A stretch of DNA of 55,407 nucleotides from an uncultured Bacillales bacterium. GTDB lineage: Bacteria; Bacillota_I; Bacilli_A; RF39; UBA660. A model generated the notes under the pieces. It was given only the letters and a program-made list of their open reading frames with translations. It was not told the DNA's origin and did no database searches. This document shows, in pieces, positions 2,252-42,764 of the stretch. The position numbers were made by a program, and so were the translations under genes. The stretch is taken from positions 1 through 55,407 of the forward strand of contig CAMVAN010000001.1 of assembly GCA_947165475.1 (NCBI GenBank), read 5' to 3'. How positions within the stretch are numbered: the stretch's first letter is position 1; each line of letters begins with the position of its first letter.

Positions 2252-2296
2252 CTCCTTATATATTATATCATCTAATAATTTAATATTAAAGACTTA

Positions 2297-2320
2297 GAGA
2301 CTATGATTTCCCATAGTCTC
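2297..2320 (-). terminator. Hairpin downstream of the last gene of the large operon (candidate intrinsic terminator)
   Basis: gagactatg / catagtctc form a 9-bp perfect stem with a 6-nt loop, 21 nt after the stop at 2341. The downstream tract UAAGUCUUUAAUAUU is only moderately U-rich. Confidence 0.4.
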
Positions 2321-2340
2321 CAGCCTCACAAACATTTATA

Positions 2341-2904
2341 TTAATATAGTCCTTGAATCTTTTTTAAATCAGCTTTTGATAAATCAGATAATATCCATTT
2401 ATCACCTTGCTTATATAAGTTAAATGTTATTTGGTATTCTTCTCTAAGATTATATTTTGATATAACATCCAACTTATATTCAATTTCATCAGACACAGTC
2501 TTAAATTCTTCTTTATGATTCTCAACATATGTAGAAGCTTTTTCATATGCAGCACTAATATCTATAGTACTAATTTGAACATTTAAAACTGCATCATGCT
2601 CACTAATAGTAGTATCTTCATTATCAATAATATTATAATTGATTTGTTCATATTTAAACTTAACGATTCCCTCATATCTTTCTTTTTGTATATTACTTAA
2701 CTCATCATCAAATGGATATTTAATTTCTTTAACAATAGATTCATCAAGTTTCTTATACTTTTCCATATATTCTTTTACTAATTCTCTAGGATTCTTATTT
2801 TCACCAAAATGCTTATTGTTTAGTAAAAAAACAATTAAAACAATCATTAATATAATTATTACAATTAGCGCAAATAGAATTTTAGGTTTCTTTTTCAAAT
2901 TCAT
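2341..2904 (-). CDS. Single-pass membrane protein with a ~150-aa extracytoplasmic domain; last gene of the operon
   Basis: Track ORF. The TM segment is ILFALIVIIILMIVLIVFLL. The start overlaps the stop of the 3245-aa gene by 4 nt (ATGA), and a GGGAGAAG RBS lies upstream. Confidence 0.7.
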   Translation of the reverse strand: MNLKKKPKILFALIVIIILMIVLIVFLLNNKHFGENKNPRELVKEYMEKYKKLDESIVKEIKYPFDDELSNIQKERYEGIVKFKYEQINYNIIDNEDTTISEHDAVLNVQISTIDISAAYEKASTYVENHKEEFKTVSDEIEYKLDVISKYNLREEYQITFNLYKQGDKWILSDLSKADLKKIQGLY

Positions 2905-5900
2905 CTTCTCTTCTCCCTTATAACAAACTTAATATTAAATAACCATAGTACAAAGAATACTACTATACCTAATGTTATAAAACCAAATATATAAAGAATA
3001 CCGATAGCTACATTGGCTTTTGTATTCTTACTATCAATATAAAAACTTATTAACTCTGGTCTACTATATATTTTTTCATTTTCAGTTTCTTGATTATTGT
3101 CTTCAATCAACTGTTTCAAATCAACAACTTCATAATTATCAGATATACTATTATAATAAGTGATATACTTTCCTTTTTGAATAACATATCCTTCAGATGA
3201 AGAATTCTTACTATTATTACTATCACTCACAACTTTTTTAGAAGAATCACGTTCAGTAATATATCTTCCATGCTTATCTTTTACAATAGAATTATTTTGA
3301 AGAAGCTCTTTTAAATTAACTGCATCTTGATAATTACTATTATTCTTCTCAATCACTCCTAAAGTAGTATATGAACTTTGATTTTTCTTTGCATAAGTTG
3401 CAAAAGAAATCTTTTTAGTAATCTTTTCACTTAATATTTCTTTACCAGTTCTATAATCAAATACCAATACTTTACCGGATTCATACATCATCACAACATA
3501 ACTTGAATCCGTATTTAAGTTATTACTCATATAAACAATTTCTTCATTTTTAAACTTGTCAGGAGTTAAAATTTTATCTTTAATATTTAAAAGTTTATGA
3601 TTATCTAATAAAACAGTAGATATTTCTTTTCCTTGATAACTATCAATAATTATTCCATATAAATTTCTATCTAAATCTTTATCAATTATTTCAATTCTAT
3701 TATCTTTAACATATATTATATTATCATATACATTACTAGAATCTTTAGATTCAATTATAGAATACAATCCATATGTATTAATCTTTGTTTTTTCATATTT
3801 AAATTCATATAAAGGTTTTGACTCATCATACATAGAAAATTCCAAACCATTTTGATTAGATAACTTTTTATTTGTACTTAAATCATAAACATCTAAGCTA
3901 TTTGTTAATAAATAATGATCATAAACATGTAAAGCATCAGAATATTCATTAGTATTACCTTTTAACTTTCCTTCGTAAATATAAGCATACTTATCATCAA
4001 ATGTGGTAACCAAATTCTTAAGTTCATCTGCAGTCCAAGTTTCTTCCTTTGTATTTAATCCATCAGTTATCACTAGTCTTATATCATCTTTATAATTATA
4101 CCTAAAAGTATAAGTCCTTTTTGATATTGGTTGATCTTCTAATTTAATCTTTCCTGAATAAATAGAGAAATACGTAGATTCATCTAAATTACTAAAATCA
4201 AGATTAATAGAATCAACTCCACTAGAATAAACTTTAAATTCTGGCATAATATGTAAGCCATATCTAGAAACTCCTGTACTTTTAAAATGAACTTCAGCAG
4301 TTGGTAAAGGTATATCATCATAAGTTGAGTAATAGCTCTTTAATCTTGGATACATTCCAGAAGAAAGTGTTGAAAAATCATAATAAGATGTGGAAAGTCC
4401 TGCATTAGTATAATTCTTTTGAACTTTCATTTGTTCCGATGTTAAAGTCTTACCAGCTTGAATAGAGTTTATTCCTGGAACATTCATAACAGGGACATCA
4501 TTAATTGTACTACCTTCATATACAGAAAATCTAGATACTGTTTCAGTATATTCCTTATCAAATGGAGTATATATACCAACATGACTATCTTCTCCAGTAG
4601 AATTAACATTTACCGCAATAACAGTATTATAGAACATTTTGTCTGTTAATTGCATTGGAGCATATCCAGTATAACCACCAACAAAATCCTCACCAGTAAC
4701 TTCAGTATTTGCAAGTAAAAACTGATGAGTAATACCTGAATAAGAGTTATTAGTTGGATCTACATTATTAATATATCCATAAGCACCACCAACATAGTTT
4801 TTACCTTTAACTTTAGCATTCAAAACAGTATAATACGTACGGAAAAATGTTCCATACCCAGTATAACCACCAACTTTTGTATTTCCATTTACTTCAACAT
4901 TATATCCATAAGAATAATTCATGTTAGCACCATAATTATATCCATAGAATCCACCAGTTGAATCTCCAACACTATTAACTTTAGTATTTTTTACCGTAAT
5001 TCTATTTATAGTATTACCTTGTTTAATACCTGCAACACCACCAGTATACTGTCCACTTGCAGATAATTGATTTACTTCTACATTCTCAACTAAAGCTCTA
5101 TCAACTCCATAATATAGATTTCCAGTAAGACCACCAACATACATCTGACCATTAGCATTAACGACCGTATCTAAAATATCGACATATGCTACTCCATGTT
5201 CATAAATATATCCAGAAAATCCGCCAATATTATATCCAGAAGATTCCTCAGGTAACGGAAGACCATTTATTGTAGAATTCTTTATAGAAGAATGGCTTGA
5301 TCCTCCCAAACCAAATACACCACCAACAAAAGACAAACCAGATACGTTCATATCTTCAACAGTATAATAAAAATCACGAACTGGATTAGAATAATTTTTA
5401 GATCCTATAACCCCACCTACATAGTTATTACCAGTAACAGTACATCCTTTTGCATTAACAGTACTAATATCAACTGTATTTGCTTGACCAATAAATCCAC
5501 CAACATAATTTGATCCAGTTATGTTATTACCTTCAATACTAACATTTTTAATATCTAAACCACTATTTCTAGCTATTGGACCAACAAATATAATATTTGG
5601 AGCATTTATAGTTACATTTTTAAATTTAACATTCTCAACATCACCATAATTAATAACAACTAATCCAAAAGAAATTCCATCTGCATCATCAATTTTTTGA
5701 TAAGTACTATTTAGGGTAATATTTTCAAAAGATACATTACTCATATTATTAGTAATGGAAGAAATAAGACCAGAATAATCACTAGAAATTGTTACATTAA
5801 TATTTTTAATTGTATGCATCTCACCATTTATTCCTTCAAGTCTTCCAAAAGAAACATTAGTTTTTACATTTGTTTTTCCAGCAAAATCGATATCATTTGT

Positions 5901-8900
5901 CAAACGATAATTTTCGTGAGTATGTTCATCAACTGCTTGCCAATCTTCAAATTTTGCTAAATCTCTATAAAATCTTAAGTTCTCAATTACTACTGACTTC
6001 CGATAGTTTTCCTCTTTTCCATTTTCTTCATAAACAATATTCTTTAATACATAGTTATCATAGTATCTCGTAGGTTTTACTCTTAGGTTTGCAACGGTTG
6101 TTCCATCTGCAGTAGAAATATTACTGCTTAATATTTGTAAATAATCAAACTCTAATTCTTTAACTTCTAAATTATTAGGATTATTAATTACCATATATAA
6201 ATAAGCATTATCTGCAGAAACTTCTTTTTGAACATCCAAAACATTAAACTTTTCTAATACCAACGGAATATCCCTCTGATTTGCAAGTAACTCTCCAGTA
6301 CCTGAATTTATTAATTTTGGTAAAGATTTATCTAAATCTTCATAATAAAACTGATCACCAAAATCTAAAACATCAATATATGTATCCCTCTCTTGTAATT
6401 GTTCAGTAGTTAAAAATTTTTCATAGTCAATATGACCAGAAATATATCCATTAAATGGTTGATATTCCCATACATAGTTATTTTGAAAGTTGCTCAATTT
6501 CATTCCTGTAGTTCTTCCTACAAGATCTCCTAAATAAGGAGAACTAACTGCTCCAATAGCTAATGTATAGCTTACATCTGTCGAATTTGGTACTCCAACG
6601 ATTCCTCCAGTATATGGCATATCAGTTGTAACATCAACTGCTGACCACACATGACTTACGATTCCACTATTTGAACCTACTATTCCTCCAGTATATATAG
6701 TAGAAGATTCAATTCTACCAGTAGCATAAGAATAAGATACACTTCCACTTCCAAGTTGTCCTACAAGTCCACCAATACCAAATGAAGCATATATATCTGA
6801 AGCATCAATAAAGACATCATTAGCAAAACAATTTCTTACCTGAAGCATACTTCCAGTACCAACTAAAGCCCCAATTCTTATATTATGCTTATTTGCCGTA
6901 TTAATATTTTGAAAATCTGTAACTGAGCTATTATCTATCATCGTATCATAAGCATATCCAATAAAGCCACCAACATAATATCGTCCACCAACTCTAGCGT
7001 GTTTCATATGAACATTATTAATTCTTGCTCCACTAGTTGAACTATAAACAAATCCACCATAATCAGTACTATCTGTTTTAGTAAAATTTTCGATATTAAG
7101 ATTTTCTAAAGTACCTGCAAGAATATAAATCAAACCTGTTCCAACATCTATTCGAACATTTTTAATAGTATGTCCATCACCATTTATTTTTCCTACGAAA
7201 GTCTCTTCGATTACAAAATTCGATGCATCAACTTCACTAAAATCAAGATCGTTCTTTAATATGTAATTTTGTTCACGATTATTATTAATATTTTTCCAAT
7301 CATTTAAATTATAAATAGGATAATACAATGAAAAATCAATTGATCGTTCAAATTCACCATAATCTCTTGTAGTAGAAAAATTTAAACTTCCGACAGATAC
7401 TATCTTTCTTAAATAATATCTTGAGGTATATTTAATTGGATCAGATACCTTAATTTGTACATTTGATATTTCTCTATCATCCTCTTGAGATAAAATCTCT
7501 ACTGTTCCAATATCTTTTATACCAATTTCTGTAATTTTTTCATGAGCTGGATTATTAACTCTTACTTCAATAATTGCAGAGTCACCATCATTACTAATTT
7601 CTTTTGCCGAAGTAACATCTAATAAATCTCTATCCTGTACCTCTGGTAAAGGAATCCAATCTTGATTAGGCATACAATCATTCAATATTACTTGTGGATA
7701 ATATCCTAAACGAACAAACTTATCTACTTCAAATCCTTTATTATCATTCAATACTTTATCTTGGAATTCAGCATCATATAATGCTAATTTACTAATTTTT
7801 GTACTATAAACTCCGTCTCCACCATATGTTTTATCAGAAGCATAAAACATATTATCTACACTAATATTACCACTATAGCCACCAATATTAGGATCTTCAG
7901 TAATTGGATTTGTATTAACCTTTTTAGGATCCTCAACAGAATATACATTTTTAATAGAACCAGCATATGAGAAACCAATTAAATTTCCTACTCCCTCATT
8001 TTGTATTGAACCGTCTTTTTCAACTGAAATAAGTGAAAAAATATTTTGAACAAAAGAAGAACTTGAAGAATATGTAACAAAAACTCCTACTTCCTTATGC
8101 TCATAACTACTAGGCTTCTCAAAATAAGCATATATGTTTTCACCATAGGCATAGCCATTCATTAATAATCCACCATTATAATTAACAAGTAAGCCACTCC
8201 AAGCACTTGCAGACATTTGAGCCTCTGTATGTATAACAAAGTTTTTGATTGTTCCATAATTACTATGTGCTAATAAACTATTATTTACATTAGGAACTTT
8301 TGTCGCTTCTTTTAATGTCACAAACACATTATCAAACGTACCATAACTATACTGAACAACCCCATATAAGTTTGACTTTGATGTCTCATTATCAGCATAT
8401 ACATCTAAAACTAGGTTTTTAATAATTGAACTACTCCTAGTTCGATAAATTACGTAATTCGGTCTATTCACAACATTGTATATCAATTTATGTCCTTGAA
8501 AATCAATTTCGCCATAAAAATCATATCCTATATACCTATTTATATTTCTTATATCCAAATCATTTAATACGATATATCTTCCATTTGTATGCATTTCAAA
8601 AAAGTCAGTAACTGTTTTAATACTTCTTATTTCTGCATTTGCATCAAATTCTACAAAATCAATATTATAAAAACGATTTCTTACTTTTACTGATAAATAT
8701 ATCTTATACTTTTTATATTTAGTAACAGCATATTTTTTAGTTTCATTAATTGCTCGATGATTTGTTAAATCATAATGAAGTGTGTCAACAAGTTTATCAC
8801 CTATATAAACTCTTAAATAATAATCATTAGTTGGTATTTCATGTCTAGTATCATCCATATTTATATTAAGATTAGCCTGATAAGTATTATTTTCTTGATA

Positions 8901-11900
8901 AGGAATATATTTATTATCATAACTATCACTAAATTCATTACCATAAGCAACACAACCTAAATGACCAGATATATATGATGAACCTCCAGAACCTCCTCCA
9001 GAACTATTGTTAGAAGGGAATCCTCCATAGAATCCACCACCTGCTCCTCCAGTATCAGTCTTAGTTGTTACATTAACTGCATATCCAAAAGCAGAACCAT
9101 ATGTCTGTGTAGCAAAATAAGAACGAGTTAGAACACCATTTATATAAGTACCATCACTAGATAAAGCACCACCTGCTCCTCCTGAGCCATCATTAGTACC
9201 CCATAATGTTCCAGTAAGATCATCAGTTCCACCACCACCGGCGGCTACCATTATTCTTGACTTCAACGATTCAGATTCATTCCATTCGCCACCTATAAGT
9301 CTAACATCAGTAGCACCACCTCCTGAACCAGAATTGGCGTTACCTCCGTTTCCACCACCATTATATCCACCAAGAGGGCCTTTATAAGAATTGGTTCCAG
9401 AGCCATAAACTCCTGCTCCTCCTACGTAAATATATATTGGAACATGAACTTTTAGTTGTATATCACCTCTTGTATAAGCACCACGTCCAGCATGACATGC
9501 AATACTTTGATCTTCTCCAGATGTGTTGGTACCATCTCCTCCTGCCGCACCCCATAATTCTATTCTATAAGTAGAAGTACTTGGAGGAGTAAACATTTGA
9601 TAACTCCCTGTATAATCAAATTCAAAAACCTGATTTGTCTTCAAATTAGTTATTCTAGCATGACCATTACCATAATTACCAACAGTAGTTACCTCTCCAG
9701 ATCTATAAGATGGCATAATCTCATCGCCTGACATCATCATTGTATTAGTAAACTTCATTCCTGATGAATGATAAGAAAGAGATTCATCTTTCGCAGCATC
9801 TATAGCCAAATCATAAGATCTAATTTGAATATTTTTAAATAAAACATCAGTTCTGGTATTTGTAGTATTAGTCTCTGCTATTAAAAAACCAATATATGGA
9901 TTTACCATCATTATTTCCATACTATAACTAGTCCAATCAGTTTTAGATAAATTATCAAGCTTATATGATTGTGTGTTTTGAAAATTATTACTAATATATA
10001 CTGGTGCAGTATTTTCAGTATCTTCATGATACTTAGCTTCAAAAGTAATTTTTATAATATGTTTATGTGCCTCAGGTAAATAATAAGAATAATTTACATA
10101 ACCAGCTTTTGCTGAAAACCTTATTATATTGTTTTCAAAATCAAATGTTTTATTTGCCGTATATCCTTCTGTTCGAAACCTAGTTATATCATTTATATTA
10201 AACAAGTTTGCAGATAATGGTTGCCTTGAAATATCATTTAAAGAAATACTTCCGATTATTCCTTCATCAGTTCTAATCTTATCTTCTAATATTGCATAAT
10301 CTCCATAAAATGTTGAATTATCATATCCAATATTATAAGAATCTACATAATATCTAAAAGTATAAACCATTAAAGGTTCAAGTTTTTCATACGTAAGTCT
10401 AACAAAATCATCATTTTTATTTAATTCCGTTTTATCAATCATCTTACCAGTACTATCTCTTACTTCAACAGCAACAATATTACCATCTATTGCACCATCA
10501 ACATCAATAACTTTTACATCGAAATCAATAATAGAAGAATTAACAAATCTATTTTTAACCTCAACTCTTGCTTCTTTTTTATAAGTTTTAAATTTTTGTA
10601 CAGTTGAAATAACTTTTATAGATTCCTCTTTTTCACCCTGTGTAACACCAGATATATATTCAATCTTATATTCACTCTTAGAATATAATCCATATATATT
10701 AACATTAACATATTCATCATTAGATATTTTTACCAATTCACTTGGACTATATGAATGTGTAAATACTACCATCCCATCAGAATCATAAACATTAATAGTC
10801 ATACTAGTTAATAATTCTATTAATAAAGGACTTGTTGATCCTCTATCAATACTAGTTCTTATTGTAACACTTCCATCCGTTAAATTTTTAATAGAATTAT
10901 CAACCCTAAAATAGCCTAAAGAAGAAAGTGGTATAGTTGAAAACTTAAAGGACCCCAAAAGATTATTTTTTGCATTTCCTTTCCCATCATTTAAATTATA
11001 ATCACCATATACGTTAATTGTATAGTTTTGATTAGTATTTAATGTTGTCAATGAAATTGAATTTGTCTTTTTAGTTGGATCCATCAATCCACTAGCTATT
11101 TCTTTTCCAATAGCATCATAAATCACATATTTATAATTATTAATATTAATTTCATCTTCATTATTCAACACAGCAGTTAATTCTACTTTATTAACATCTA
11201 TAGAAACAATTTTAACTTGAGCAGATGGTGGTTTATTAGAAGTATACGTCTCACCATCAGCAATCTTTGATTTCAATATATTACCATACGAGTCAATTAA
11301 CTGAAAACTATATTTAATTTTACTCTTACTTGGTAATGAAGTAGGAGATTCATAACCAATAGTTTGCCCAGCTCTTAGCTTACTATTACTAGATGACGAG
11401 AAATAATAATCAGCATCATTTATTATTATTTTTATTTTATTAAGTCCATACAAAGCATCAGTTTTTAAATCTGATATTATTTTTACATTTTTCAATTCAA
11501 TTTTATCTGGATATATATCACCATTTTCATAAACAATTTCTATTGGAGCCAAATCATCAATAGAGCCCATTTTTATTTCCTGTTCGAAAAAACTCTGCTC
11601 AATTTTCTTATTCTCTTCATCATAATACTTAAAACTTCCTACTACATTATACGTAACACCTGGTTCAAGCGGTGAAACTATTATTTTTCCACCAGAGCCG
11701 TATACTTTTCTAAGAGAAATTTTACCATTTTTATAGAAATGAAAATTTATTCCTCCAATTATTCGATTAGCAGGATCATTAATCGTAATTTCTGAAGTAG
11801 CTGTATATGTCTTAGTTTCAAAAGGAATTACAGAAACCTTAGGCTTAACATACTTAACCTCCGGTTTTGGAGGTGCTGGAGTAGTTGTATTTTTCTCATC

Positions 11901-12638: not shown

Positions 12639-12648
12639 AATTTACCTC

Positions 12649-13354
12649 CTAAGAATAATTCTTTAATTTACCCACCTTTTTTATAAATAATCTTGATGTT
12701 CCATTGTAGTACATTAAGTCAAGTGTTCCATTTACCGTAAAACTTTCATTCTTAATTACAATTTCCTCATTTGTTCCTACAACTTCCATTTTATCATTAT
12801 CATAATCATATATTTCCACATATTCATTATAGTTATCGATTCTCAAATAAGAGAAAGAAGATAAATTATATATTTGTCCATTAACACTTACTGTATAATC
12901 ACCAACTAAAAAATATAAATCATATCCATCATAAATAATACAATCATTCAATTGCTTATCAACAACTCGATCTTTTAATTTAACATCATTATACTCATTT
13001 TTAGTCATATAAGAAAAGTAATTTATTTTAAACTGTTCACCAGTTCTTGGAAAAATAATTGCCATATTTTTTGGAAATACAACTTTTTTTTCTTTAGCAT
13101 AATAAACAGGTGTAGTATCTAATGTCACTCTTTTCTTAAGACCATCAAAATTAATAGTAGTAATATCATTGTTCTTATTTAACTCAACATTTCCCACATA
13201 TTTAAGCTTGGTATCACCTGTATACTGAAACAAAGATGTTTTCTTTATAACAATTTTATCTTCTCTCTTTATTAAAAATTGGAATACTGCTACAACAACT
13301 ACAATTAATAAAATAGATACCATCACAATTATCCTATAGTTAAATTTTATTTTT

Positions 13355-13362
<8 letters not shown>
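12649..13362 (-). CDS. Single-pass membrane protein (237 aa) with a beta-rich extracytoplasmic domain
   Basis: Track ORF. The TM segment is IIVMVSILLIVVVVAVFQFLI, with an AGGAGGAT RBS. It overlaps the upstream gene by 8 nt and ends 10 nt before the giant gene. Confidence 0.75.
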
Positions 13363-16251
<2,889 letters not shown>

Positions 16252-16254
16252 ATT

Positions 16255-17592
16255 CTATTCTTTTTGGAATAAATCCTGAAATAAGTCAATCATTTCTTGA
16301 TGTGTTTTAGTTGAAAATTTATATTGTCTTAACTTTTCAAGAATTTGTTCTCCCTCTTTAAAACTATTCTTTAATTCTGCGGACATTTCATCTTCATTTA
16401 CTAATTCATAAACAGATTTTCTCTCAAGATAAGATAAAAGTTTTCTTCTAATTTGTGTACCCATCTCTTTAAGCTCTTTTGTTTGTACTGCACCACCAAG
16501 TCTTGAAACAGATAATCCATAATTAATGGCAGGTTTTTCTCCTTTTTGAAAATTCTTGCTAGACAAAACTATTTGACCATCCGTTATAGAAATAACGTTA
16601 GTCGAAATATAATCTGTAATATCATTCCCCTTTGTTTCCATAACCGGAAGAATAGTAATAGATCCTCCGTTTTTATACTGACATCCTTTTTCCAACAATC
16701 TTGAATGTGTATAAAAAATATCTGCCGGATACGCATCACGACCAGGTGTTTTATTAGAAAGCAAACTAATTTCACGATAAGCTTCTGCATGACGTTTCAA
16801 ATCATCAATACAAACCAAAACATCACGGCCTGATTTCATAAACTCTTCTGCGATACTTAATGCAAAATAAGGAGTTAAAGATATAACTGGTGGCAAATCA
16901 TCATTAAAAGCAGCAACAATAATAGTATAGTTTATTGCACCTTTTTCTACCAACTCTTTATAGACTGTTTTAACTTCTTTTTTAGTCTTACCTAAAGCAA
17001 TATAGATACAAAAAACATTCTTATTCTTCTGATTAACAATAGTATCTAAAAGAATTTGAGTTTTACCAGTTCTTTTATCACCTATTATTAATTGTCTTTG
17101 TCCTTTACCGATTGGGTAAAGCATATCGATTCCAGTTATACCGGTTTCAAGAGGTCTATTAACAGTTGTTCTATCCATTATTGCTATAGTAGGACGTTCA
17201 ATGGGAAGATCAATAAGTGACGAAAATTTTTTAGAAGATAATATATCAACACCAAAGATATTTATAATTCGGCCAAAAGCATCATTTGAATACTTTCCTT
17301 GAAATAAAGTGTTTGTTGAATATGACATATCTCCCACAATAATTGGAGTCTTAATATCAACAATAGCTACAATTACATAGTTTTCGTGAATAGCGCTGAC
17401 ATATCCAATTGCTTTATCACCAATGTTAATTTTCTCATAAAACATAACACGATCCATACCATCAACTCTTATTAAAAAGTTTTTAACACCAGTTACTGTT
17501 CCTACACTATAAACATTTGAATTATCACTAATTTTTTCAATTTTCTCGTCAACAATTCTAGTTAAATAATTATCTTCTTCCATTTTTATCAC
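16255..17592 (-). CDS. F1 alpha-like subunit (445 aa)
   Basis: Walker A is GDKRTGKT (canonical GDRQTGKT). CIDDLKRHAEAYREISLLSNKTPGRDAYPADIFYTHSRLLE matches the alpha signature. ITDGQIVL..PAINYGLSVSRLGG keeps the Arg-finger context. An AGGTGA RBS lies upstream. Confidence 0.9.
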   Translation of the reverse strand: MIKMEEDNYLTRIVDEKIEKISDNSNVYSVGTVTGVKNFLIRVDGMDRVMFYEKINIGDKAIGYVSAIHENYVIVAIVDIKTPIIVGDMSYSTNTLFQGKYSNDAFGRIINIFGVDILSSKKFSSLIDLPIERPTIAIMDRTTVNRPLETGITGIDMLYPIGKGQRQLIIGDKRTGKTQILLDTIVNQKNKNVFCIYIALGKTKKEVKTVYKELVEKGAINYTIIVAAFNDDLPPVISLTPYFALSIAEEFMKSGRDVLVCIDDLKRHAEAYREISLLSNKTPGRDAYPADIFYTHSRLLEKGCQYKNGGSITILPVMETKGNDITDYISTNVISITDGQIVLSSKNFQKGEKPAINYGLSVSRLGGAVQTKELKEMGTQIRRKLLSYLERKSVYELVNEDEMSAELKNSFKEGEQILEKLRQYKFSTKTHQEMIDLFQDLFQKE

Positions 17593-18363
17593 CTATTTTA
17601 TACAAAAATCATACATTTTGTTTTTATACTTTATCATAATTCCACGATAAATTTTATTATCATATATGGTTTGTATTTTATCGCTTATATAATCATAATT
17701 CTTATTCTTATCACTTACATATACATAAACAAATGGATCCTCATTAGCAAGCATCTTATCTAAGTATGGTCGAAATGCAATAATATCCATCTTTTTATTT
17801 TTGTTAATAAAACCATTTACTATTTCTTGATTATTTTTAAACAAATCCCTTAAAATCTTCTCTTGTTCTTTAGCATTTTTAGAAGATATTTCATAGCAAT
17901 ACTTGCTATTTAACTTATCTTTATAACTCTTAAGTTCAATATACTTATCAAAGTTTTGATTATTGGATATTTTCTCAATAAATCTTTTTATTAAAGCCTC
18001 TTCATTTAAATTAAATCTTTCATCAATAGTTTTTACTTGTTGTAATATATTTTCGTCTAGATAATCAACTTTTTTAATATTAACTTCATATTCAGATGAA
18101 TCGGCATTACTTTCTATTATCTCTTCCCCACTATTATCTTCTTCTTTTTCACTATTCCTTTTTGCTATTTCTTCATTTAACTCATTTAACTGATTTTCTT
18201 TTTCTTGTATAACATTATCATAAACTTGCACCTTATCCAAATAGTATTCTTTTGAAGCCTTATTAATCTTTTCCACTATCCTTCTTAAAAAAGAAAACAT
18301 TAACAATATAAGCAAAAGAATAAATATAAATAATATTACTAAAACAACAATCTCAGTATTCAT
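17593..18363 (-). CDS. b-subunit-like peripheral-stalk candidate: N-terminal TM, coiled coil and an extra C-terminal globular domain (256 aa)
   Basis: It occupies the atpF/atpH position between c and alpha. The TM segment is IVVLVILFIFILLLILLMFSFL, followed by a charged helical region QEKENQLNELNEEIAKRNSEKEE. I see no recognisable delta/OSCP sequence, so the call rests on position and architecture only. Confidence 0.6.
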   Translation of the reverse strand: MNTEIVVLVILFIFILLLILLMFSFLRRIVEKINKASKEYYLDKVQVYDNVIQEKENQLNELNEEIAKRNSEKEEDNSGEEIIESNADSSEYEVNIKKVDYLDENILQQVKTIDERFNLNEEALIKRFIEKISNNQNFDKYIELKSYKDKLNSKYCYEISSKNAKEQEKILRDLFKNNQEIVNGFINKNKKMDIIAFRPYLDKMLANEDPFVYVYVSDKNKNYDYISDKIQTIYDNKIYRGIMIKYKNKMYDFCIK

Positions 18364-18369
18364 AAACTA

Positions 18370-20048
<1,679 letters not shown>

Positions 20049-20050
20049 AT

Positions 20051-23000
20051 TTACGCTCCTAAAGCAATATATTTATGCTCTATATTAGTATCCATAACTG
20101 TTATATTTCCTGATGCGAATTGCATTTGAACTAAATATATGCCATAACCCTGTAAAGAAACATCAGGAATTGTAAACGTATATGCTTGACGTCCACCAAT
20201 AGAAACTTCTTTTGGAACAAAATCACTTGATCCTGAATAAGTAGCGCCTGTCTCTTCGTTATAAATTGTATAAGATATTTTATCAATCTTTGTCAATTTA
20301 GTACTATTCATAAATATTAAATCAATATAAGATGAATTATTTGAATTTTGAATTGAAGAAATATCTCCTACGTCGATACCAGTAGAATTTGTCACTCTTG
20401 TTGAAAATTTTGAAACCATCATAGTAGGATTACCATTATTTTCTGTGTCAGCTGAATAATAAATACATAATGTATAAGATTCTTGTGAATTGATTCCCTC
20501 AAATACAAATTTATGTGCACTATCATAAATGCTAGTTCTTACATCTACATATTTTTCTGGAGTTATATTTTCTCCTTTAGAATTATAAAATTCAATTGTA
20601 TAATCTTCACTATTTATAATCTTCCAAGTATCATAAATAGTCACAGTAAATTCAACATAATCATCATCACTATAAATAGAACTTCTTACATTAAATACTG
20701 GATTACTTAATTTTCTTAAATTAAATACATAATCACCTGGATTTTCAAGTTTAATTTCATGATCTCCATCATCTGAATTAGTAATAACAATTGGTTGAAT
20801 TATCAATTCATAACTATCTCCAAAAACAAATGGTCCTCCTGGATTACATGGAACTTTTACTGTCATAAGTTCAGTAAATCTTGTACTACTTGGAATTGTT
20901 ATATCCATTAGTTCTTTATCATAATTTCCAGTTTCAGGATTACGTGTTAATTTATATAATTTATACTCAATTTTATCATAACCTACTAATTTACCTAATC
21001 TATACGTAAATACCAAATTCTTTTCATCGTATTTTACGAAATTATAATTAAGACCAATATTAGTAATTGGAACAGATGTCAAAGTATCAAAATAATATGT
21101 CCTTCCTTCAACATCTTTGTCTAAATCATATAAATAATGCTTTTCATAATCACCGTTTTTATTCTTTAAATTAGCATATATTTTTATTGCATATCTCTGA
21201 TTTGGTAATAAACCATCAACATCAAAACCAGAATCAAATTGATCTACAGTAAATGAAACAGTTTTTAATAAATCCATTTTAGTTGCATATTCATCTGTTT
21301 CATAAATTTCTGCATACATTTCATTATTTTCTAATTCAGAATGTTCAAAGCCAAACATAGATCCTTTAATTAAAACATCTCTAATTCCAGGAACAAGTGT
21401 TGATTTACCTTCTTCATCACTTAAACGAATTCCGGGTATTAATTGATCAAATACAAATGAACTTTCTCCAGAAGATACAGCCCTATTCACAGATAATCCC
21501 TTAGGTAAATAATAAGTATAATTATAAGAAATACCTTGCCTATCAGGAATAAAAGGAATAATTAAATTATAATTATTGGTAAAACTATTAAATTTAATTT
21601 CTTTTTTACCAATCTCTTTACTAATCAAACTACCCATTGCAATCTTTCCATTATTATATAAACTTTGATTATAATTAATATAATAATAATCACCAATTCC
21701 ACTATTATATTCATTTCCAAGAGATTGCAAAGCAAAAACATCTCCAGGTAAATCAAAACCTATACGTTCATCATCATAGTAAACATCAACTAACATATTT
21801 ACTTTTTTACCTCTGAAAGCAGCAATTTCATACAAATCTACAATTGCGAGATTACTATCAGAAATAACTCTATAATCTTTAACTACTTTTTTACCATCAC
21901 ACTCAAAAGTAATCTTTAAACCAGCAATCTTTTGATATAAATAATTAGATCTATCATAACCAGCAATAGAAATAAGAGCCCTATTCGTTTCCATATCTAG
22001 AGTATAAGAATATTCATTGTCATATCTCGGATTTGCAAAATACTGAAATAAAACCTCTTTATCACTTATAGAATCAGCTTTCTTAATTAATGCCTGAGAA
22101 GCATAAACATATAAAAAACTTGAATGTAAATTATCTAATGTTACCTCCTCATAAGTACTAGTCTTTTTTACCCTAGAGGAACTAACTGGTTCTAGTGTTT
22201 CTTTTGAAGTACCAACTTTAGCAAAAAATTCATCTTTATACAAAGCATTATCAACATCATTAAGTGTATATTTTAATGTTATTTCTCCGATATCAGAAGA
22301 AGAAGGATAAGTAGTAATAATAGCTTCCTGCTTAGGAACTTCAATAACTTTTGATTTTAATATAACATCTTCTTCAACTGGATAATGAGTCAATTCATCA
22401 CCATCACCAAGTTTTAAATATGCCTCATAAGTGAAATAATAATTATGTCCCCTTCGTAAATCAGTATCTTCCGTATCATATGGAGTACCATAATCAAAAT
22501 ATATTTCAGTAAAATCAATAGTACCATCAGCACTAACAACATACCTAAAATCGGCATTTTCAATTTTTTTCTTAGTATCTGCATCATACACATGATAATC
22601 AATATATTTAGCATAACGTCTAGTATTATCGTATAGTGCCTTAATCTTAATGCCTACAATAGTATTACCATCCAAATTAGGATCTTGATGCTCTGAATCA
22701 GCATTTCTGTTTCTTATATATTGATATTCAATTGCATCATCAGTATCCACAGGATTATCAGGTGCTAAATTATTAATCTTAACAGTATACACATTGTTAA
22801 TTATTTCTATAGGATTCTTAAAATCAGAATAATCATACGCCTCAGATATAAGTATAGTTATATATTCACTCTTAATATCAGAATTTGAAAGTCCGAAAAA
22901 TGAAGGAGATAATGCAAATCCTTTATCATAATAGTCTTTCTTTAAATCACTATAATATTCACGTAAATCTCTATCAACAAGTTTTAATGTTTTAATTATC

Positions 23001-25318
23001 TTTCCATTTACGCTTCTTCCTTCAAAAACAGTAAAAGTAATACCAGTTAAAGTTTTTGCCTCAAGAGTATTATCATACCCTATTCCTTGCATTAACTGTG
23101 CAGAAATCTTAAAAGCTAATGTAGGACTTTCAACAGAAGAAAAAGTAGCTTGTATAGGATTTGTTGGATTAGTCACTACCGTAACACTTCCAATATAATA
23201 AGAATCAATTATTTCATTTCCATCCTGAAAATCAACAGTTCCATAAACAGCTATATTATATGATTCATTCTGTCTTAAATTATTAATATCAATTGGAATA
23301 ACCAGATTACCCTCAGTATTAAATTGTTTTGTTGTTCCAATAGAATTTGTATATACAATTTTCATTTTTTTAGTTAAATCAATTGTATTAGCTAAATCAG
23401 TTATTAAAATTGTTCCTTTTATTCTTTCAAAAGTTACCTCTTCAGGTCTCCAAGTTAAATAAGCACCTTCAACTCCATCTAACTGCATAGTACCACTTAA
23501 TGGAGTAACATACTCAATATATTTTTCATTATCATAAAATTCAGTAACAACACGATAAATATATGGTACACCTCTTTGAAGTGATTTTCCATCAACATCA
23601 ACATCAACAGATCCCTTAGCTTTCTTTTCAATCACTTTAACAGGTTGTGCATTTTCATTATAATTTCTAGCATCATATATTTCATATAAATAAGACTCTA
23701 TTCCATTATCAGGATCCTTTATATTATTAAGTGTTAAAGAGAAAGTACTACTTTTCTTATCTATAGAAAAGGATACATTTCCAAAAGTTGGTCTTGATTT
23801 TAATGTCTTAAAACTAGTTTCAATATTATTTTCAGCACCAATTACATAATTATCATATAGAATATTATCAATTAATATTCCATATTTTGTATTTCTATCT
23901 AAATCAGTAAAAAGGGCAGAATAACCTGTACCTTTTTTTGCAGTCTCTGCATCAACAACCTTTTCTTCAAGAACTTCACCATTTTTATTAAGTAATGAAA
24001 TATTACAACTTTTTACTTTTGAGTAACCATCAAATTTAACATTAAAAGATACTTCATTACTTGTTACATATTCTTTTTCAAGATTAATTCCAAGTGATTC
24101 AGTAGTAAACAATTGTGATATCACATCTGAAACATATTCAACATCATCTCTTGTATAACTAACTCTAGTAGTTAAACTATATGTTAAATTAGGTTCCAAA
24201 TTAGGAACTTCTATATCTATACTATATTGACCACTTTCAAATGTCTCTTCATAAACATGTTTTCCTGTAGCATTTTCTGTAACCATTACAATTGTCTTAC
24301 CTCTCATCAAAGAATCCGGATCCTTTATTTTTATACTAGCATTCATCATATTTGACGAAATTTCAATATCTTCAATTGTAGCAGTAGGAACAGTAGAAGA
24401 TTTTTCATCAACTGCAACTTCTTCTCCAATAGTTGTTTCCCCACCTGCAACCGAATCACCACCATTATTAATGCTTTCAGAATTTTCATTTTTATCATTA
24501 TTAATGATATTTCCAAATTCATCATATTGAACATCTTCATCTTTAGTTTCTTCTTTTTCTTCAACATATTCAGAAATATTTATATTATCTTGTGAATTAA
24601 TTATCATTTGATCCAATGTAAATATAGGTTCTTTATCTTTTAAAATATAATGATTATCAAGTTTTAAAACAATACCTTCCCCAATAACCAAATAATTGTC
24701 TTTTCCAATCGTTTGAACATTTACTTTTTTATTATCAAGTCTTACAACTTCTTCATCAATAATACTTAATTCAATATAGTTATCACCAACTTCAACTTCT
24801 CTACTATCATCTAGTCTTAATTTCATTCCATCGGCAACAATTAAATACTTATTAGTATCAGACTTAACAATAAACCTTTTAAATTTTATAATATTATTTA
24901 AATTTTCTAATGAATAATAAGATTCTTTTTTTTCTAACAAATTATTTTGAAAAATATTATAATATTTTAAATCGTTACTCAATATATCATCTATACTTAC
25001 AATAACAGCTTTTTTTAAAACTCCAATTGAATCATTTTCATAATGAACAAAAGAAGAAATAGGTACCCTTGTATTTTTACCTTCTGTATTCGAAAAAACA
25101 ATATTATCATCATAAGATTTAGAATATTTAGTTTCAGCATTAAAATAAGAAATCTGAGCATTATTATCAACATTTCCTGTTAACTTTTGACTATTGATAA
25201 TATAACCTGATTCCTTCAACACTTGAACATTCTTATTGTTTTTTTCAATTGCAGCATAAAACATAACACCAGTAATAATCAAAAATAAAACCACAATAAC
25301 CATTATTTTACTCTTCAT
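20051..25318 (-). CDS. Giant (about 1755 aa from Met-23) N-terminally anchored surface protein made of tandem FN3/Ig-like beta domains; first gene of the operon
   Basis: Uninterrupted ORF. I prefer the start at 25318 (MKSKIMVIVVLFLIITGVMFYAAI) because the track start at 25384 lies inside the predicted -35 box. An acidic linker EEKEETKDEDVQYDEF..GGDSVAGGETT follows the juxtamembrane domain. Repeated ~100-aa units carry the L(E/N)PN(L/T)xY signature. There is no C-terminal TM and no LPXTG. Confidence 0.85.
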   Translation of the reverse strand: MKSKIMVIVVLFLIITGVMFYAAIEKNNKNVQVLKESGYIINSQKLTGNVDNNAQISYFNAETKYSKSYDDNIVFSNTEGKNTRVPISSFVHYENDSIGVLKKAVIVSIDDILSNDLKYYNIFQNNLLEKKESYYSLENLNNIIKFKRFIVKSDTNKYLIVADGMKLRLDDSREVEVGDNYIELSIIDEEVVRLDNKKVNVQTIGKDNYLVIGEGIVLKLDNHYILKDKEPIFTLDQMIINSQDNINISEYVEEKEETKDEDVQYDEFGNIINNDKNENSESINNGGDSVAGGETTIGEEVAVDEKSSTVPTATIEDIEISSNMMNASIKIKDPDSLMRGKTIVMVTENATGKHVYEETFESGQYSIDIEVPNLEPNLTYSLTTRVSYTRDDVEYVSDVISQLFTTESLGINLEKEYVTSNEVSFNVKFDGYSKVKSCNISLLNKNGEVLEEKVVDAETAKKGTGYSALFTDLDRNTKYGILIDNILYDNYVIGAENNIETSFKTLKSRPTFGNVSFSIDKKSSTFSLTLNNIKDPDNGIESYLYEIYDARNYNENAQPVKVIEKKAKGSVDVDVDGKSLQRGVPYIYRVVTEFYDNEKYIEYVTPLSGTMQLDGVEGAYLTWRPEEVTFERIKGTILITDLANTIDLTKKMKIVYTNSIGTTKQFNTEGNLVIPIDINNLRQNESYNIAVYGTVDFQDGNEIIDSYYIGSVTVVTNPTNPIQATFSSVESPTLAFKISAQLMQGIGYDNTLEAKTLTGITFTVFEGRSVNGKIIKTLKLVDRDLREYYSDLKKDYYDKGFALSPSFFGLSNSDIKSEYITILISEAYDYSDFKNPIEIINNVYTVKINNLAPDNPVDTDDAIEYQYIRNRNADSEHQDPNLDGNTIVGIKIKALYDNTRRYAKYIDYHVYDADTKKKIENADFRYVVSADGTIDFTEIYFDYGTPYDTEDTDLRRGHNYYFTYEAYLKLGDGDELTHYPVEEDVILKSKVIEVPKQEAIITTYPSSSDIGEITLKYTLNDVDNALYKDEFFAKVGTSKETLEPVSSSRVKKTSTYEEVTLDNLHSSFLYVYASQALIKKADSISDKEVLFQYFANPRYDNEYSYTLDMETNRALISIAGYDRSNYLYQKIAGLKITFECDGKKVVKDYRVISDSNLAIVDLYEIAAFRGKKVNMLVDVYYDDERIGFDLPGDVFALQSLGNEYNSGIGDYYYINYNQSLYNNGKIAMGSLISKEIGKKEIKFNSFTNNYNLIIPFIPDRQGISYNYTYYLPKGLSVNRAVSSGESSFVFDQLIPGIRLSDEEGKSTLVPGIRDVLIKGSMFGFEHSELENNEMYAEIYETDEYATKMDLLKTVSFTVDQFDSGFDVDGLLPNQRYAIKIYANLKNKNGDYEKHYLYDLDKDVEGRTYYFDTLTSVPITNIGLNYNFVKYDEKNLVFTYRLGKLVGYDKIEYKLYKLTRNPETGNYDKELMDITIPSSTRFTELMTVKVPCNPGGPFVFGDSYELIIQPIVITNSDDGDHEIKLENPGDYVFNLRKLSNPVFNVRSSIYSDDDYVEFTVTIYDTWKIINSEDYTIEFYNSKGENITPEKYVDVRTSIYDSAHKFVFEGINSQESYTLCIYYSADTENNGNPTMMVSKFSTRVTNSTGIDVGDISSIQNSNNSSYIDLIFMNSTKLTKIDKISYTIYNEETGATYSGSSDFVPKEVSIGGRQAYTFTIPDVSLQGYGIYLVQMQFASGNITVMDTNIEHKYIALGA

Positions 25319-25355
25319 AATTTCACCATAATCCCATATTATCTTATACATAATG

Positions 25356-25384
25356 ATTATAAATAAAAAGCAAAAAATTATCAA
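25356..25384 (-). promoter_or_regulatory. Sigma-A-type promoter of the large operon
   Basis: On the minus strand: TTGATA (25384-25379), a 17-nt spacer, then TATAAT (25361-25356). This lies about 38 nt upstream of the ATG at 25318. Confidence 0.55.
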
Positions 25385-25429: not shown

Positions 25430-25657
25430 TTATTCTATCAAAAAAGGACAAACATGTGGAACTTCATGAACAAAAGTCCTATTAATAACTCTTTCTTGTA
25501 CCCCTTCATTCAATGGTTGTTGAAAATTAGTTTGATTCATCATCCCACTGCTTGGCATCATAGTAACATCAACATCCATATCATTTTGAATAGTATTATT
25601 ATTTCCTGTAATAGTAGAATCCACATTAACGTCTTGATAAAAACTATTATTATACAT
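25430..25657 (-). CDS. Small CotD-family-like spore coat protein (75 aa), apparently C-terminally short
   Basis: Start MYNNSFYQD with AGGAGG 6-7 nt upstream; the track start at 25696 has no RBS. The C-terminal RTFVHEVPHVCP resembles the His/Pro-rich CotD repeat. The ORF ends right after this motif. Confidence 0.4.
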   Translation of the reverse strand: MYNNSFYQDVNVDSTITGNNNTIQNDMDVDVTMMPSSGMMNQTNFQQPLNEGVQERVINRTFVHEVPHVCPFLIE

Positions 25658-25705
25658 ATCAATACCTCCTAAAGTATTGTATGATAAAACAAACATTTAT
25701 GAAAC

Positions 25706-25732
25706 AAAAAAAAAAGATATAAGCAATATCTT
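25706..25732 (-). terminator. Intrinsic terminator after the lipoprotein gene
   Basis: On the minus strand: aagatat-tgctt-atatctt (7-bp stem) followed by T10, starting 3 nt after the stop at 25735. Confidence 0.6.
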
Positions 25733-25734
25733 AA

Positions 25735-26166
25735 CTAGTTTATATTACACTTATATCCTTGTTCTTCAAGACCTTTTTTAGTTGCCTCTGGAGTACTCAT
25801 CTTAGATAGAACATTTTTAGCAATTTTATCAACATCTAAAGTAGCAGAAACATGTAAATTTTTATCATTTCTTTTATGCTTACAATCTGTAAAAGCGCTT
25901 TTATACTCACTCATTGAATCTTTAACAAGAGAACACCAATCTTGTTTATCAACATATGATAACGATTCTTCTGGATAACTAGACAAATCCATATCGTAAG
26001 AAAAATCCATAGTGCTAATTGTATTTCCATCAAATCCAACATTAAAAATAATATCAACACCATTTGAAGATTGAGTACATTTCAATGTAGACTTCTTTCC
26101 ACACCCGGTAACAAAAACTGCTAAAATTACTATAGAAAAAATAAGCAAAAAATTTTTTCTCATCAA
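25735..26166 (-). CDS. Lipoprotein (143 aa)
   Basis: The signal peptide has the lipobox LAVFVTGC-GKKS. This is a track ORF. Confidence 0.75.
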   Translation of the reverse strand: MMRKNFLLIFSIVILAVFVTGCGKKSTLKCTQSSNGVDIIFNVGFDGNTISTMDFSYDMDLSSYPEESLSYVDKQDWCSLVKDSMSEYKSAFTDCKHKRNDKNLHVSATLDVDKIAKNVLSKMSTPEATKKGLEEQGYKCNIN

Positions 26167-27524: not shown

Positions 27525-27616
27525 ATTCTTCACCCATAAATATTGTACCAAATAAGAGGAATGAAGTCCATTGATAAATAAAATATATAAAAAAAGAATC
27601 CTAAAAAGGAATCTTT

Positions 27617-29977: not shown

Positions 29978-30088
29978 AACTATCCCTCTTATTCTTTCAC
30001 TACTATATAAAAATTATACAAGTAAATACAATCTTTTTCAAGAAAAAAATACTACAATTAAGTAGTAAATTAATATCAGGTACAAAAA

Positions 30089-31421: not shown

Positions 31422-31715
31422 TTATATAATCTCCTCTAATTCTTTCTTCAAAGAATCATTATCTATCTTAGATAAAACACTTAATATAATATTTTTTTTC
31501 TTTAAAAGCATTAATTTTTCTTCATATTCCTCTAATTTTAAAATAACAGAATGAACTTGATTAAAAATAGCATTTCTACTCACTCCATAGTCTTCTGCCA
31601 TTTCAGAAAAACTCAAATTATTACAATAATAATCCTCAAAATACTTTTTTTGTTTATCAGTTAGTAAAGAACCATAAATATCATACAAAGAATTATAATA
31701 AACAACTGAATCCAT
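31422..31715 (-). CDS. ylxM: YlxM/UPF0122 small HTH protein of the SRP operon
   Basis: LYDIYGSLLTDKQKKYFEDYYCNNLSFSEMAEDYGVSRNAIFNQV matches the YlxM signature, and the gene sits downstream of ftsY. Confidence 0.85.
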   Translation of the reverse strand: MDSVVYYNSLYDIYGSLLTDKQKKYFEDYYCNNLSFSEMAEDYGVSRNAIFNQVHSVILKLEEYEEKLMLLKKKNIILSVLSKIDNDSLKKELEEII

Positions 31716-42420: not shown

Positions 42421-42764
42421 AAATATAAATAAGCCATGTTCTGTACCCAGTTGGGCGACAAACATTTATCTACCAATTTCTTGGTCCCTAAATCCGTTCG
42501 TTTCCTTCATTAGGACTCCCCTACCAAATTTGGGTTTCTCACTCGTGGGGTTTACCGCGTTTCATTCTTCCTTTTCAGGAAGCATCGTTTCTGTGGCACT
42601 TTATGGACTTTTCCATATCAAAAGACACAGGAAAATAATCCGCCGTTAGTAAAAACTACCCTAGGTTATTTTTTCCCTAGGCACGAACACTACAATCATC
42701 ACAGATTGTGTGAGCATGGACTTTCCTCAAGAATTATAAAATCCCAGCGTTTGTCTATATATTT
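42421..42764 (-). ncRNA. rnpB: RNase P RNA, type B (ends approximate, +/-15 nt)
   Basis: The minus strand contains GAGGAAAGTCCATGCTCACAC, AGTGCCACAGAAACG, AACGCGGTAAACCCCACGAGTGAGAAACCCAAATTTGGTAGGGGA and GGGTACAGAACATGGCTTA. These are the conserved P4, J11/12, P15 and P4' blocks of Bacillus-type RNase P RNA. It lies next to gpsB as in B. subtilis. Confidence 0.85.

Follow-up and report, generated by a model that had tools for sequence, protein, structure and literature searches.

An F1Fo-type ATPase gene set co-encoded with giant surface proteins in an uncultured member of the Bacillota: a candidate ATP-driven mechanical machine

Introduction

F1-like ATPases that are re-used beyond ion transport have so far been found in mycoplasmas only and are referred to as mycoplasma-specific (PMC3369863, PMC11864180). 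In these organisms, enzymes of Type 2 and Type 3 act together with surface proteins (PMC11864180, PMC12994834). Here, we describe an operon that encodes a divergent set of F1Fo-type subunits together with giant membrane-anchored surface proteins in an uncultured Bacillales bacterium (lineage RF39 / UBA660 in GTDB). The operon is located on the minus strand (25384..2341) of a 55,407-nucleotide (nt) stretch of DNA, contig CAMVAN010000001.1 of assembly GCA_947165475.1, which in its full length is referred to as the window. An earlier note on this DNA had suggested an ATP-driven surface machine. A machine of this kind, powered by ATP, linked to surface proteins and without a bioenergetic role, is still the best reading of the locus, given the loss of the carboxylate in subunit c, a search of the loci for subunit a that returned none, and conserved synteny. 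We consider it fairly probable that the operon encodes an F1Fo-derived rotary ATPase without ion transport, which spends ATP on mechanical work on the co-encoded giant surface proteins.

The Type 2 enzyme of Mycoplasma mobile, the G1-ATPase, is an F1-like motor thought to drive the proteins Gli123, Gli349 and Gli521 in gliding. One of its components, GliD, is proposed to be derived from a b-delta fusion. There is no gene for subunit c or for a transmembrane (TM) stalk, the G1 beta subunit carries an N-terminal extension of ~300 amino acid residues (aa), and the enzyme assembles with PGK into dimers and chains (PMC11864180, PMC8406192).

The Type 3 enzyme, the F1-like X0 ATPase (MSC_0618/0619 family), is required for antibody cleavage by the MIB-MIP system. 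It is encoded by a cluster of seven genes, i.e., those for a 12-TM protein, a small cytoplasmic protein, gamma, epsilon, a large protein with a signal peptide and two TM helices, alpha and beta. The cluster harbors no c gene, and its alpha subunit is devoid of the stalk-binding helix (PMC3369863, PMC12994834). Literature searches yielded no account of a comparable cluster from outside the Mollicutes and no publication on the system considered here.

Catalytic head and central stalk

Relatives of the operon were collected in a scan of one genome per GTDB species, supplemented with metagenome contigs, and loci are referred to by L numbers. Both subunits of the catalytic head are readily recognized. 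The alpha-like subunit (16255..17592; all genes of the operon are on the minus strand), which comprises 445 aa by its open reading frame (ORF), matches PF00006 with 248 bits and has a shortened C-terminal domain. Its top PDB matches are F1 alpha subunits, and 11 of 11 family members retain Walker A as well as the Arg finger. Translation probably starts at the ATG at 17583 (442 aa), in line with a gene call made on another contig. The beta-like catalytic subunit (14114..15481; 455 aa) contains PF00006 and PF22919 and has F1 beta subunits as its top PDB matches (380-400 bits). Walker A and the catalytic Glu are found in 117 of 120 homologues, and a DELSEED-like loop motif in 88 of the 120. Because Walker A, the catalytic Glu and the Arg finger are conserved, the enzyme should hydrolyze ATP, as predicted from the intact catalytic motifs.

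In some relatives, alpha or beta is extended by a long low-complexity C-terminal tail, composed of E/K/Q-rich or PEVV-type repeats, to a length of 728 aa for beta or 562-746 aa for alpha (L086 10672-12858; L089 10823-13063; L002 7533-9221). The proteins encoded in the window are without such tails.

The central stalk is represented by a gamma-like subunit (15484..16251; 255 aa; PF00231 with 84.7 bits), the gene of which is matched by a canonical gamma hidden Markov model (HMM) in 17 of 18 family loci, and by a short epsilon-like subunit of 83 aa (13882..14133), which overlaps with beta by 20 nt and matches profiles weakly. The latter product has no sequence match in Pfam or the PDB. Compared with canonical epsilon, it gives a colinear hhalign alignment (P=0.014-0.039), and the canonical epsilon HMM matches this gene alone, in L009 and L088 (E ~4e-3). 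Its position and size are right for epsilon, and it bears an I(L/M)PG(H/Y)xPLL-type motif, which we take to be that of canonical epsilon sequences. By these comparisons the product is probably a short epsilon that consists of the N-terminal beta-sandwich domain only, i.e., one without the inhibitory C-terminal helices.

A short epsilon (83-89 aa, without the C-terminal helical domain) is also encoded in the canonical, complete atp operons of L014, L016, L017, L027, L031 and L047. The hosts are mostly metagenome-assembled genomes (MAGs) of Clostridia-type Bacillota, and L047 is labeled Planctomycetia. Because several canonical operons have such a subunit, it is not unique to the divergent family.

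Membrane part and peripheral stalk

The 81-aa c-subunit homologue (18370..18615; PF00137 with 36.5 bits) has lost its ion-binding carboxylate. We aligned 10 family members to 36 canonical c subunits. All 36 canonical sequences carry the Glu of helix 2 that binds the ion, and none of the 10 family members does: the residue is Ala in the window, while the nine other members have Thr or Asn. The family sequences retain the GxGxGxG packing motif as well as the RNPE loop, which faces gamma and epsilon. A canonical c HMM matches the c gene in 16 of 18 family loci, and the remaining two loci stop short of the position of the gene. Six-frame HMM scans covered the window together with 17 related loci and gave, within these loci, no credible match to subunit a. 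A single 15-bit match to the subunit a model was discarded because it is antisense to RNase J. As judged from these sequences, the conventional Fo ion path is absent at the locus, and because the c carboxylate is lost and no subunit a was found in the loci, a conventional ion-coupled ATP synthase is not possible.

The gene that follows c encodes a 256-aa protein (17593..18363) with an N-out TM helix, a long helix, a disordered linker and a delta/OSCP-like domain. It has no sequence match in Pfam, NCBIfam or the PDB. When a profile of the family was compared with canonical delta, it aligned over the C-terminal part of that subunit (hhalign, P=5.4e-5), and within the family loci the canonical delta HMM matches only this gene. 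In an AlphaFold2 (AF2) model with a predicted local distance difference test score (pLDDT) of 79.6, a combined TM and stalk helix leads into the disordered linker, after which come a bundle of helices and a small beta domain. When this model was compared with the PDB using Foldseek, the 37 best matches were all ATP synthase entries (E from 5e-3, probability up to 0.92), and the chains that we recognized among them are delta/OSCP or mycobacterial b-delta. Profile and model thus identify the protein as a predicted membrane-anchored b-delta fusion, i.e., as the peripheral stalk. The earlier note had named c, b, alpha, gamma, beta and epsilon; four of these assignments (c, alpha, gamma and beta) are borne out by Pfam, while its "b" is the b-delta fusion and epsilon is supported weakly.

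A further membrane component is encoded by the one gene of the operon that the note had left undescribed. Its product, conserved in the family, is a polytopic membrane protein of 176 aa with 4-5 TM helices (13355..13885). It resembles none of the subunits a, b, c, delta, epsilon and gamma, and it has no invariant Arg. Its assignment as subunit a was ruled out, since it is unrelated by comparison with the canonical subunits. The protein is a candidate for a replacement of the membrane stator.

Phylogeny and family-model scores

A neighbor-joining (NJ) tree was calculated from concatenated alpha and beta sequences (889 columns) of the family and of canonical F1. All 100 of 100 bootstraps recover the family as monophyletic. 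Its stem measures 0.55 substitutions per site, and in 75 of 100 bootstraps the family is placed beside the Clostridia-type canonical F1. Identity between the family and canonical F1 is ~40% over alpha and beta; between canonical F1 of different phyla it is at least 57%. In this tree, alpha and beta fall outside the housekeeping clade, on a very long branch.

The beta subunit of the window reaches 476.8 bits with NCBIfam atpD (cut-off 462.85) and the depositors call its gene "F0F1 ATP synthase subunit beta"; the beta of L010, at 457 bits, is below the cut-off. The alpha subunit is below every NCBIfam cut-off, including those of the two atpA models (397.6 versus 484.45 and 421 versus 554 bits); canonical controls reach 818-858 bits. 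With the Type 3 models MSC_0619 and MSC_0618, alpha and beta score 305.9 (cut-off 520) and 405.3 (cut-off 570), respectively, which is below the scores of ordinary F1 subunits (315-337 for alpha and 444-470 for beta). With the Type 2 models MMOB1660 and MMOB1670 the scores are 376 (cut-off 600) and 378.8 (cut-off 850). Ordinary F1 subunits equal or outscore the family on the models of both types, i.e., the NCBIfam profile scores give no sign of a specific affinity to the mycoplasma Type 2 or Type 3 enzymes. The alt_F1F0 models of N-ATPase give 364, 411 and 24 bits for alpha, beta and gamma (cut-offs 750, 752 and 282), and the FliI/SctN models give 176-231 bits (cut-offs 380-620). The FliI/SctN ATPases are homo-hexameric, and the operon encodes alpha and beta as separate subunits.

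Surface and membrane-anchored proteins

The ATPase genes are flanked by genes for five single-pass membrane proteins and for the polytopic 176-aa protein. An N-terminal TM signal-anchor followed by a large ectodomain is predicted in each of the five, which comprise 1755, 474, 237, 3245 and 187 aa. The TM anchors noted earlier for the flanking proteins are thus found at the N-terminus of all five and, in the 3245-aa protein, at the C-terminus as well.

The largest of these, giant 2 (2901..12638; 3245 aa), has a TM helix at both ends, the C-terminal one with a basic tail. From the N-terminus, the anchor precedes a beta domain, which a linker connects to about five Ig/FN3-like domains; then come a larger beta domain, an ALK_LTK_GRD domain, a GLUG region and the C-terminal TM helix. 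Sequence searches identified the glycine-rich ALK_LTK_GRD domain (residues 1021-1251) and the GLUG motifs after it, and they detected no sequence similarity to the PDB. The beta-helix repeats named in the earlier note are a putative fold for this part of the protein. For residues 1-1100, an AF2 model (pLDDT 82.5) has FN3, Ig and macroglobulin arrays as its Foldseek matches. TM helices at both ends are found in 85 of 105 homologues of giant 2, which bears out the description of a protein tethered at both ends.

Giant 1 (20051..25318; 1755 aa; the ORF extends to 25384 if a TTG is used) has an N-terminal TM anchor and no sequence match in Pfam or the PDB. Its orthologues, of 1490-2184 aa, are found at the same position in loci that are long enough, with 31-40% identity where measured, and a faint fn3 match was seen in the giant 1 of one relative. 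In the 474-aa protein (18624..20048), the N-terminal TM anchor is followed by a conserved beta-rich ectodomain, a low-complexity linker and a C-terminal FN3-like region; the family is conserved in 12 loci and its profile matches tenascin FN3 (E=3.4e-5). The FN3/Ig-like arrays that had been noticed earlier are therefore recovered in residues 1-1100 of giant 2 and in the 474-aa protein. The 237-aa protein (12649..13362), with an N-terminal TM anchor and a beta-rich ectodomain, is conserved in 11 loci and has no match in Pfam or the PDB. Outside giant 2 and the 474-aa protein, none of the ectodomains resembles a known family.

The last gene encodes the N-anchored protein of 187 aa (2341..2904) and lies outside the conserved core. 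It is present in one close relative, L091 (68% identity), and is absent after the giant in L092. A membrane-proximal domain common to four of the N-anchored ectodomain proteins was considered and found unconvincing (hhalign, P ~1e-3 to 1e-2). Pfam and NCBIfam scans of all twelve products revealed no protease or immunoglobulin-binding families.

Conservation, rearrangement and spread

The scan of species genomes yielded nine related loci with 59-73% identity in beta, followed by a sharp fall to canonical atpD at no more than 48%. The hosts are MAGs that the depositors labeled Bacilli, Bacillales, Erysipelotrichaceae or Bacillota. A core of 11 genes, i.e., those for giant 1, the 474-aa type, c, b-delta, alpha, gamma, beta, the epsilon-like subunit, the 176-aa type, the 237-aa type and giant 2, is complete in every locus that is long enough, in 9 GTDB species genomes and many metagenome contigs. 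The giants are 31-42% identical across the nine species loci, and the core is kept down to a giant identity of 25-27%; in L092, for example, giant 2 is 27% identical and the gene set is kept.

The set also stays together when it is rearranged. In one lineage the c gene has been relocated upstream of giant 1 (L088 1735-1980; L095 818-1063), and in L096 giant 2 has been relocated to this site (5796-16088). In L009 the c gene at first seemed to be missing, but it has been relocated upstream of giant 1. The genes that flank the operon differ among lineages.

A search among 1.84 billion proteins with the b-delta profile gave 561 representatives at 50% identity (E <=1e-3), and by this count of sequences the system is widespread in sequenced microbiomes.

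Operon layout and genomic context

The twelve ORFs on the minus strand are spaced by -20 to +10 nt, and most of the genes are preceded by a ribosome-binding site of the AGGAGG type. A promoter-like site, TTGATA-17-TATAAT (25356..25384, minus strand), lies upstream of gene 1, i.e., that of giant 1. It is the best promoter match of the region and agrees with the consensus at 11 of 12 positions; it was found by consensus match alone, and in these AT-rich stretches promoter-like matches are no more frequent than in shuffled sequence. A terminator-like hairpin with a 12-bp stem (2295..2322, minus strand), also a consensus match alone, is located directly past the last stop codon; such a hairpin is rare (0.1 expected in shuffles), and the T-run behind the stem is weak. 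The ORF spacing and the signal scans thus agree with the earlier account of twelve packed minus-strand genes with one promoter match and one hairpin. The promoter-like site overlaps the TTG at 25384, with which the longest ORF of gene 1 would begin; this TTG falls in the -35 box. The true start is the ATG at 25318, which gives 1755 aa, so that the length of 1777 aa stated in the earlier note has to be corrected.

The window has a guanine plus cytosine (GC) content of ~26%, and TGA is a stop codon. Its flanks code for MurE, a class A penicillin-binding protein, RecU, RNase J1, RNase Y, Ffh, FtsY and a DnaD-like protein. On the basis of the peptidoglycan genes in these flanks, the host is a wall-bearing member of the Bacillota. 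No sporulation genes were recognized in the window, and the description of the host as sporulating is therefore unsupported. An RNA of class B RNase P (42425-42763, minus strand; 287 bits) fits a host of the Bacillota/Mollicutes lineage, and the number of tRNA genes within the entire 55 kb is zero.

Several other genes are found near the operon. A region on the minus strand at 27617-31336 encodes a HerA-like ATPase of 786 aa (NCBIfam HerA_antiphage_2, 169 bits, under the cut-off) and a 415-aa protein without a family match. The two genes are placed between ylxM (31422-31715) and ffh (26217-27551), which are usually neighbors in Bacillota genomes, and the pair may be an inserted defense island. 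Two small ORFs of 88 and 143 aa (25430-26166, minus strand) without a Pfam or NCBIfam match are located between ffh and the operon promoter, a position often taken by rpsP and a KH-domain gene in Bacillota. Just past the terminator hairpin, a gene on the minus strand (1655-2251) encodes a 198-aa protein with a signal peptide, a possible lipobox (LTSVGC) and no family match, which is kept at the same site in the close relative L091 (69% identity).

Interpretation and alternative explanations

Because head, rotor and stalk are kept while the ion site is lost and no subunit a was found at the loci, the output of the motor would no longer be an ion gradient. The six membrane and surface proteins are the likely load because their linkage to the ATPase is strict and survives rearrangement. 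The retained b-delta stalk supports torque, because a stalk is needed only against torque. In the mechanism that we propose, ATP hydrolysis would rotate gamma, epsilon and the c-ring against a stator composed of the b-delta stalk and the 176-aa protein. The torque, or a limited power stroke, would be passed to the TM helices of the single-pass proteins and from there to their ectodomains. The force could follow one of several paths, i.e., TM helices that engage the c-ring or the stator, a stroke on the doubly anchored giant, or a cam-like action. As a result, an adhesin-like assembly may be moved, tensioned or reset, by the principle that has been proposed for the F1-like ATPases of mycoplasma gliding (Type 2) and of MIB-MIP (Type 3).

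A more specific version, which we regard as tentative and rather doubtful, is that of a rotary actuator of a hitherto unrecognized class in walled bacteria. Here, an F1 head would turn an ion-blind c-ring against the stator of b-delta and the 176-aa protein, the rotor or the stator would engage TM helices of the single-pass proteins, and the torque would thereby cross the membrane to the doubly anchored giant in the manner of a winch or crank, in the service of adhesion, gliding, or the handling of prey or host. The earlier idea of a motor that pulls on a doubly tethered protein, i.e., the winch, is speculation.

Several points weigh against a motor that works on the giants. The proposed coupling of the ATPase to these proteins is deduced from conserved operon membership alone, and epsilon is weakly identified by its sequence. 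It is also hard to picture how the symmetric rotation of a c-ring could be converted to useful extracellular movement, and a doubly anchored protein cannot be wound without limit. Furthermore, paralogues of giant 2 form tandem arrays elsewhere, and no ATPase genes are found within 10 kb of these (L093 314-27248; L094 1-18559). These arrays, on contigs of 1.3-1.6 Mb, consist of two or three genes for proteins of ~2400-2950 aa that are ~31% identical; the paralogues of ~2850 aa are mostly anchored at both ends, and the ~2415-aa P0260 type has no terminal TM helix in the scan. Because such arrays occur without a nearby ATPase, the giant family is not strictly dependent on the motor.

Alternatively, the F1-like head, placed on an inert c-ring as its anchor, could act as an ATP-dependent conformational switch or as a regulator of adhesion from the inside out, without sustained rotation. 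The c-ring has no ion site, and at the loci no subunit a was found for it to run against; a protein tethered at both ends could not take unlimited rotation. The Type 3 enzyme, the F1-like part of which is labile, was proposed to reset MIB-MIP via a conformational change (PMC3369863, PMC12994834), and this precedent favors a switch. We nevertheless regard a switch as unlikely, as it is hard to explain without torque why a rotor (gamma, the epsilon-like subunit and a c with an intact F1-facing loop) and a stator (b-delta) are conserved under selection. The same retention of peripheral stalk and c-ring, which suggests torque and not the threading of a substrate, makes it quite unlikely that the operon encodes a machine for export or assembly, in which the F1-like ATPase would help to translocate, insert or fold the giants, akin to FliI/FliJ in type III export. 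The FliI/SctN ATPases are homologous to F1 alpha and beta and are found among the lower-scoring matches, the partner proteins are all membrane-inserted and mostly extracellular, and the conserved double anchoring of the large giant could call for special handling. However, the ordinary N-terminal signal-anchors of the partners suit Sec/YidC, and the paralogous giants located away from ATPase clusters imply that such proteins are made without a dedicated neighbor. To our knowledge, no F1-type (alpha3beta3-gamma) enzyme exports proteins.

Two further explanations were considered. The operon could encode the only ATP synthase or proton pump of the organism, an enzyme that evolves fast in a reduced genome, with subunit a encoded elsewhere and the surface genes as passengers. 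The canonical order c-(b/delta)-alpha-gamma-beta-epsilon, a beta narrowly above the atpD cut-off and the name given by the depositors would fit such a divergent housekeeping F1Fo, but it is made very improbable by the absence of the essential carboxylate from c in 10 of 10 members, by 18 loci scanned without a subunit a, by an alpha below the atpA cut-offs and by a family branch that greatly exceeds the distances between canonical enzymes from different phyla, and also because the giants stay partners even after rearrangements. A chance adjacency of an atp-like remnant and unrelated adhesin genes might be suspected from the occurrence of adhesin-like giant genes of the same family elsewhere, in tandem arrays. 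Yet, gaps are 0-10 nt or the genes overlap, with a single promoter and a single terminator, and the same 11 genes are found together across lineages in which the giants are 25-40% identical and the flanking genes differ. This conserved synteny refutes chance adjacency, to which we assign next to no probability. Equally, a normal atp operon with a chance insertion does not describe the locus, as the giants and the small membrane proteins are conserved neighbors in loci that are long enough.

Implications

An F1Fo-derived motor that works on surface proteins, the reading preferred here, would extend to wall-bearing, uncultured gut Bacilli a principle seen in mycoplasmas, and it would do so in a large and diverse family (561 clusters of the stalk protein). 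Since the c-ring and the peripheral stalk are kept while the ion path is lost, force transfer from an F1 motor across a membrane could be tested in a system with a recognizable rotor and stator. There is a credible chance that the system represents a new class of transmembrane rotary actuator. It is also a candidate intermediate for the evolution of such motors. In the more specific version above, it may be an extant stage on the way from F1Fo to the mycoplasma motors of Type 2 and Type 3, and c and b-delta would then correspond to the 12-TM and the GliD-like proteins there. Furthermore, the annotation as "F0F1 ATP synthase" may lead metabolic reconstructions of these gut lineages to wrongly assign a proton-coupled ATP synthase.

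Comparison with known systems

The nearest relative in sequence is the canonical Clostridia-type F1Fo (Type 1), with a beta subunit that is 45-48% identical. The two have in common the set of c, b/delta, alpha, gamma, beta and epsilon in canonical order as well as the catalytic residues. The present system differs from Type 1 in that no subunit a is found at the locus, the c carboxylate is missing, b and delta are fused, the C-terminal domain of alpha is shortened, and the genes are embedded among six additional genes for membrane and surface proteins. A divergent second F-type operon beside the housekeeping one is a feature of the N-ATPases (atpDCQRBEFAG) in some bacteria, and in this divergence the present operon is similar. 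N-ATPases retain a functional subunit a and an ion-binding subunit c. Their gene order includes AtpQ and AtpR, whereas the order found here is that of canonical F-type enzymes.

With the Type 2 system the operon shares giant membrane-anchored surface proteins, and the origin proposed for GliD parallels the b-delta protein described here. The giant gli genes form a separate operon, and Gli349 and Gli123 are similar in size to the two giants. Unlike G1 beta, the beta subunit of 455 aa has no N-terminal extension, nor are there signs of the dimers and chains with PGK. The G1 chains in the PDB score below ordinary F1 for this subunit (322 versus 380-400 bits).

The likeness to Type 3 is found in F1-derived alpha, beta, gamma and epsilon-like subunits that are encoded with membrane proteins other than the ion-translocating parts of Fo, in the genetic linkage, often within one operon, to surface proteins (the function of the Type 3 partners needs the ATPase), and in a host from the low-GC radiation of Bacilli and Mollicutes. 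In contrast to Type 3, the order is the canonical c-(b-delta)-alpha-gamma-beta-epsilon, with a c subunit and a membrane-anchored stalk. MIB, MIP and the 12-TM protein are not encoded, gene content and order differ, and the host has peptidoglycan genes.

The earlier note had considered a less-reduced relative of the mycoplasma F1-like ATPases. This view receives no positive support, as the Type 2 and Type 3 scores are below those of ordinary F1 and both gene order and accessory genes differ; it is no less likely that the system arose independently from an F1Fo of the Bacillota. The system is probably an independent or earlier offshoot of the Bacillota F1Fo, and the best reading of the comparison is that it resembles the mycoplasma F1-like ATPases in function without being a member of them.

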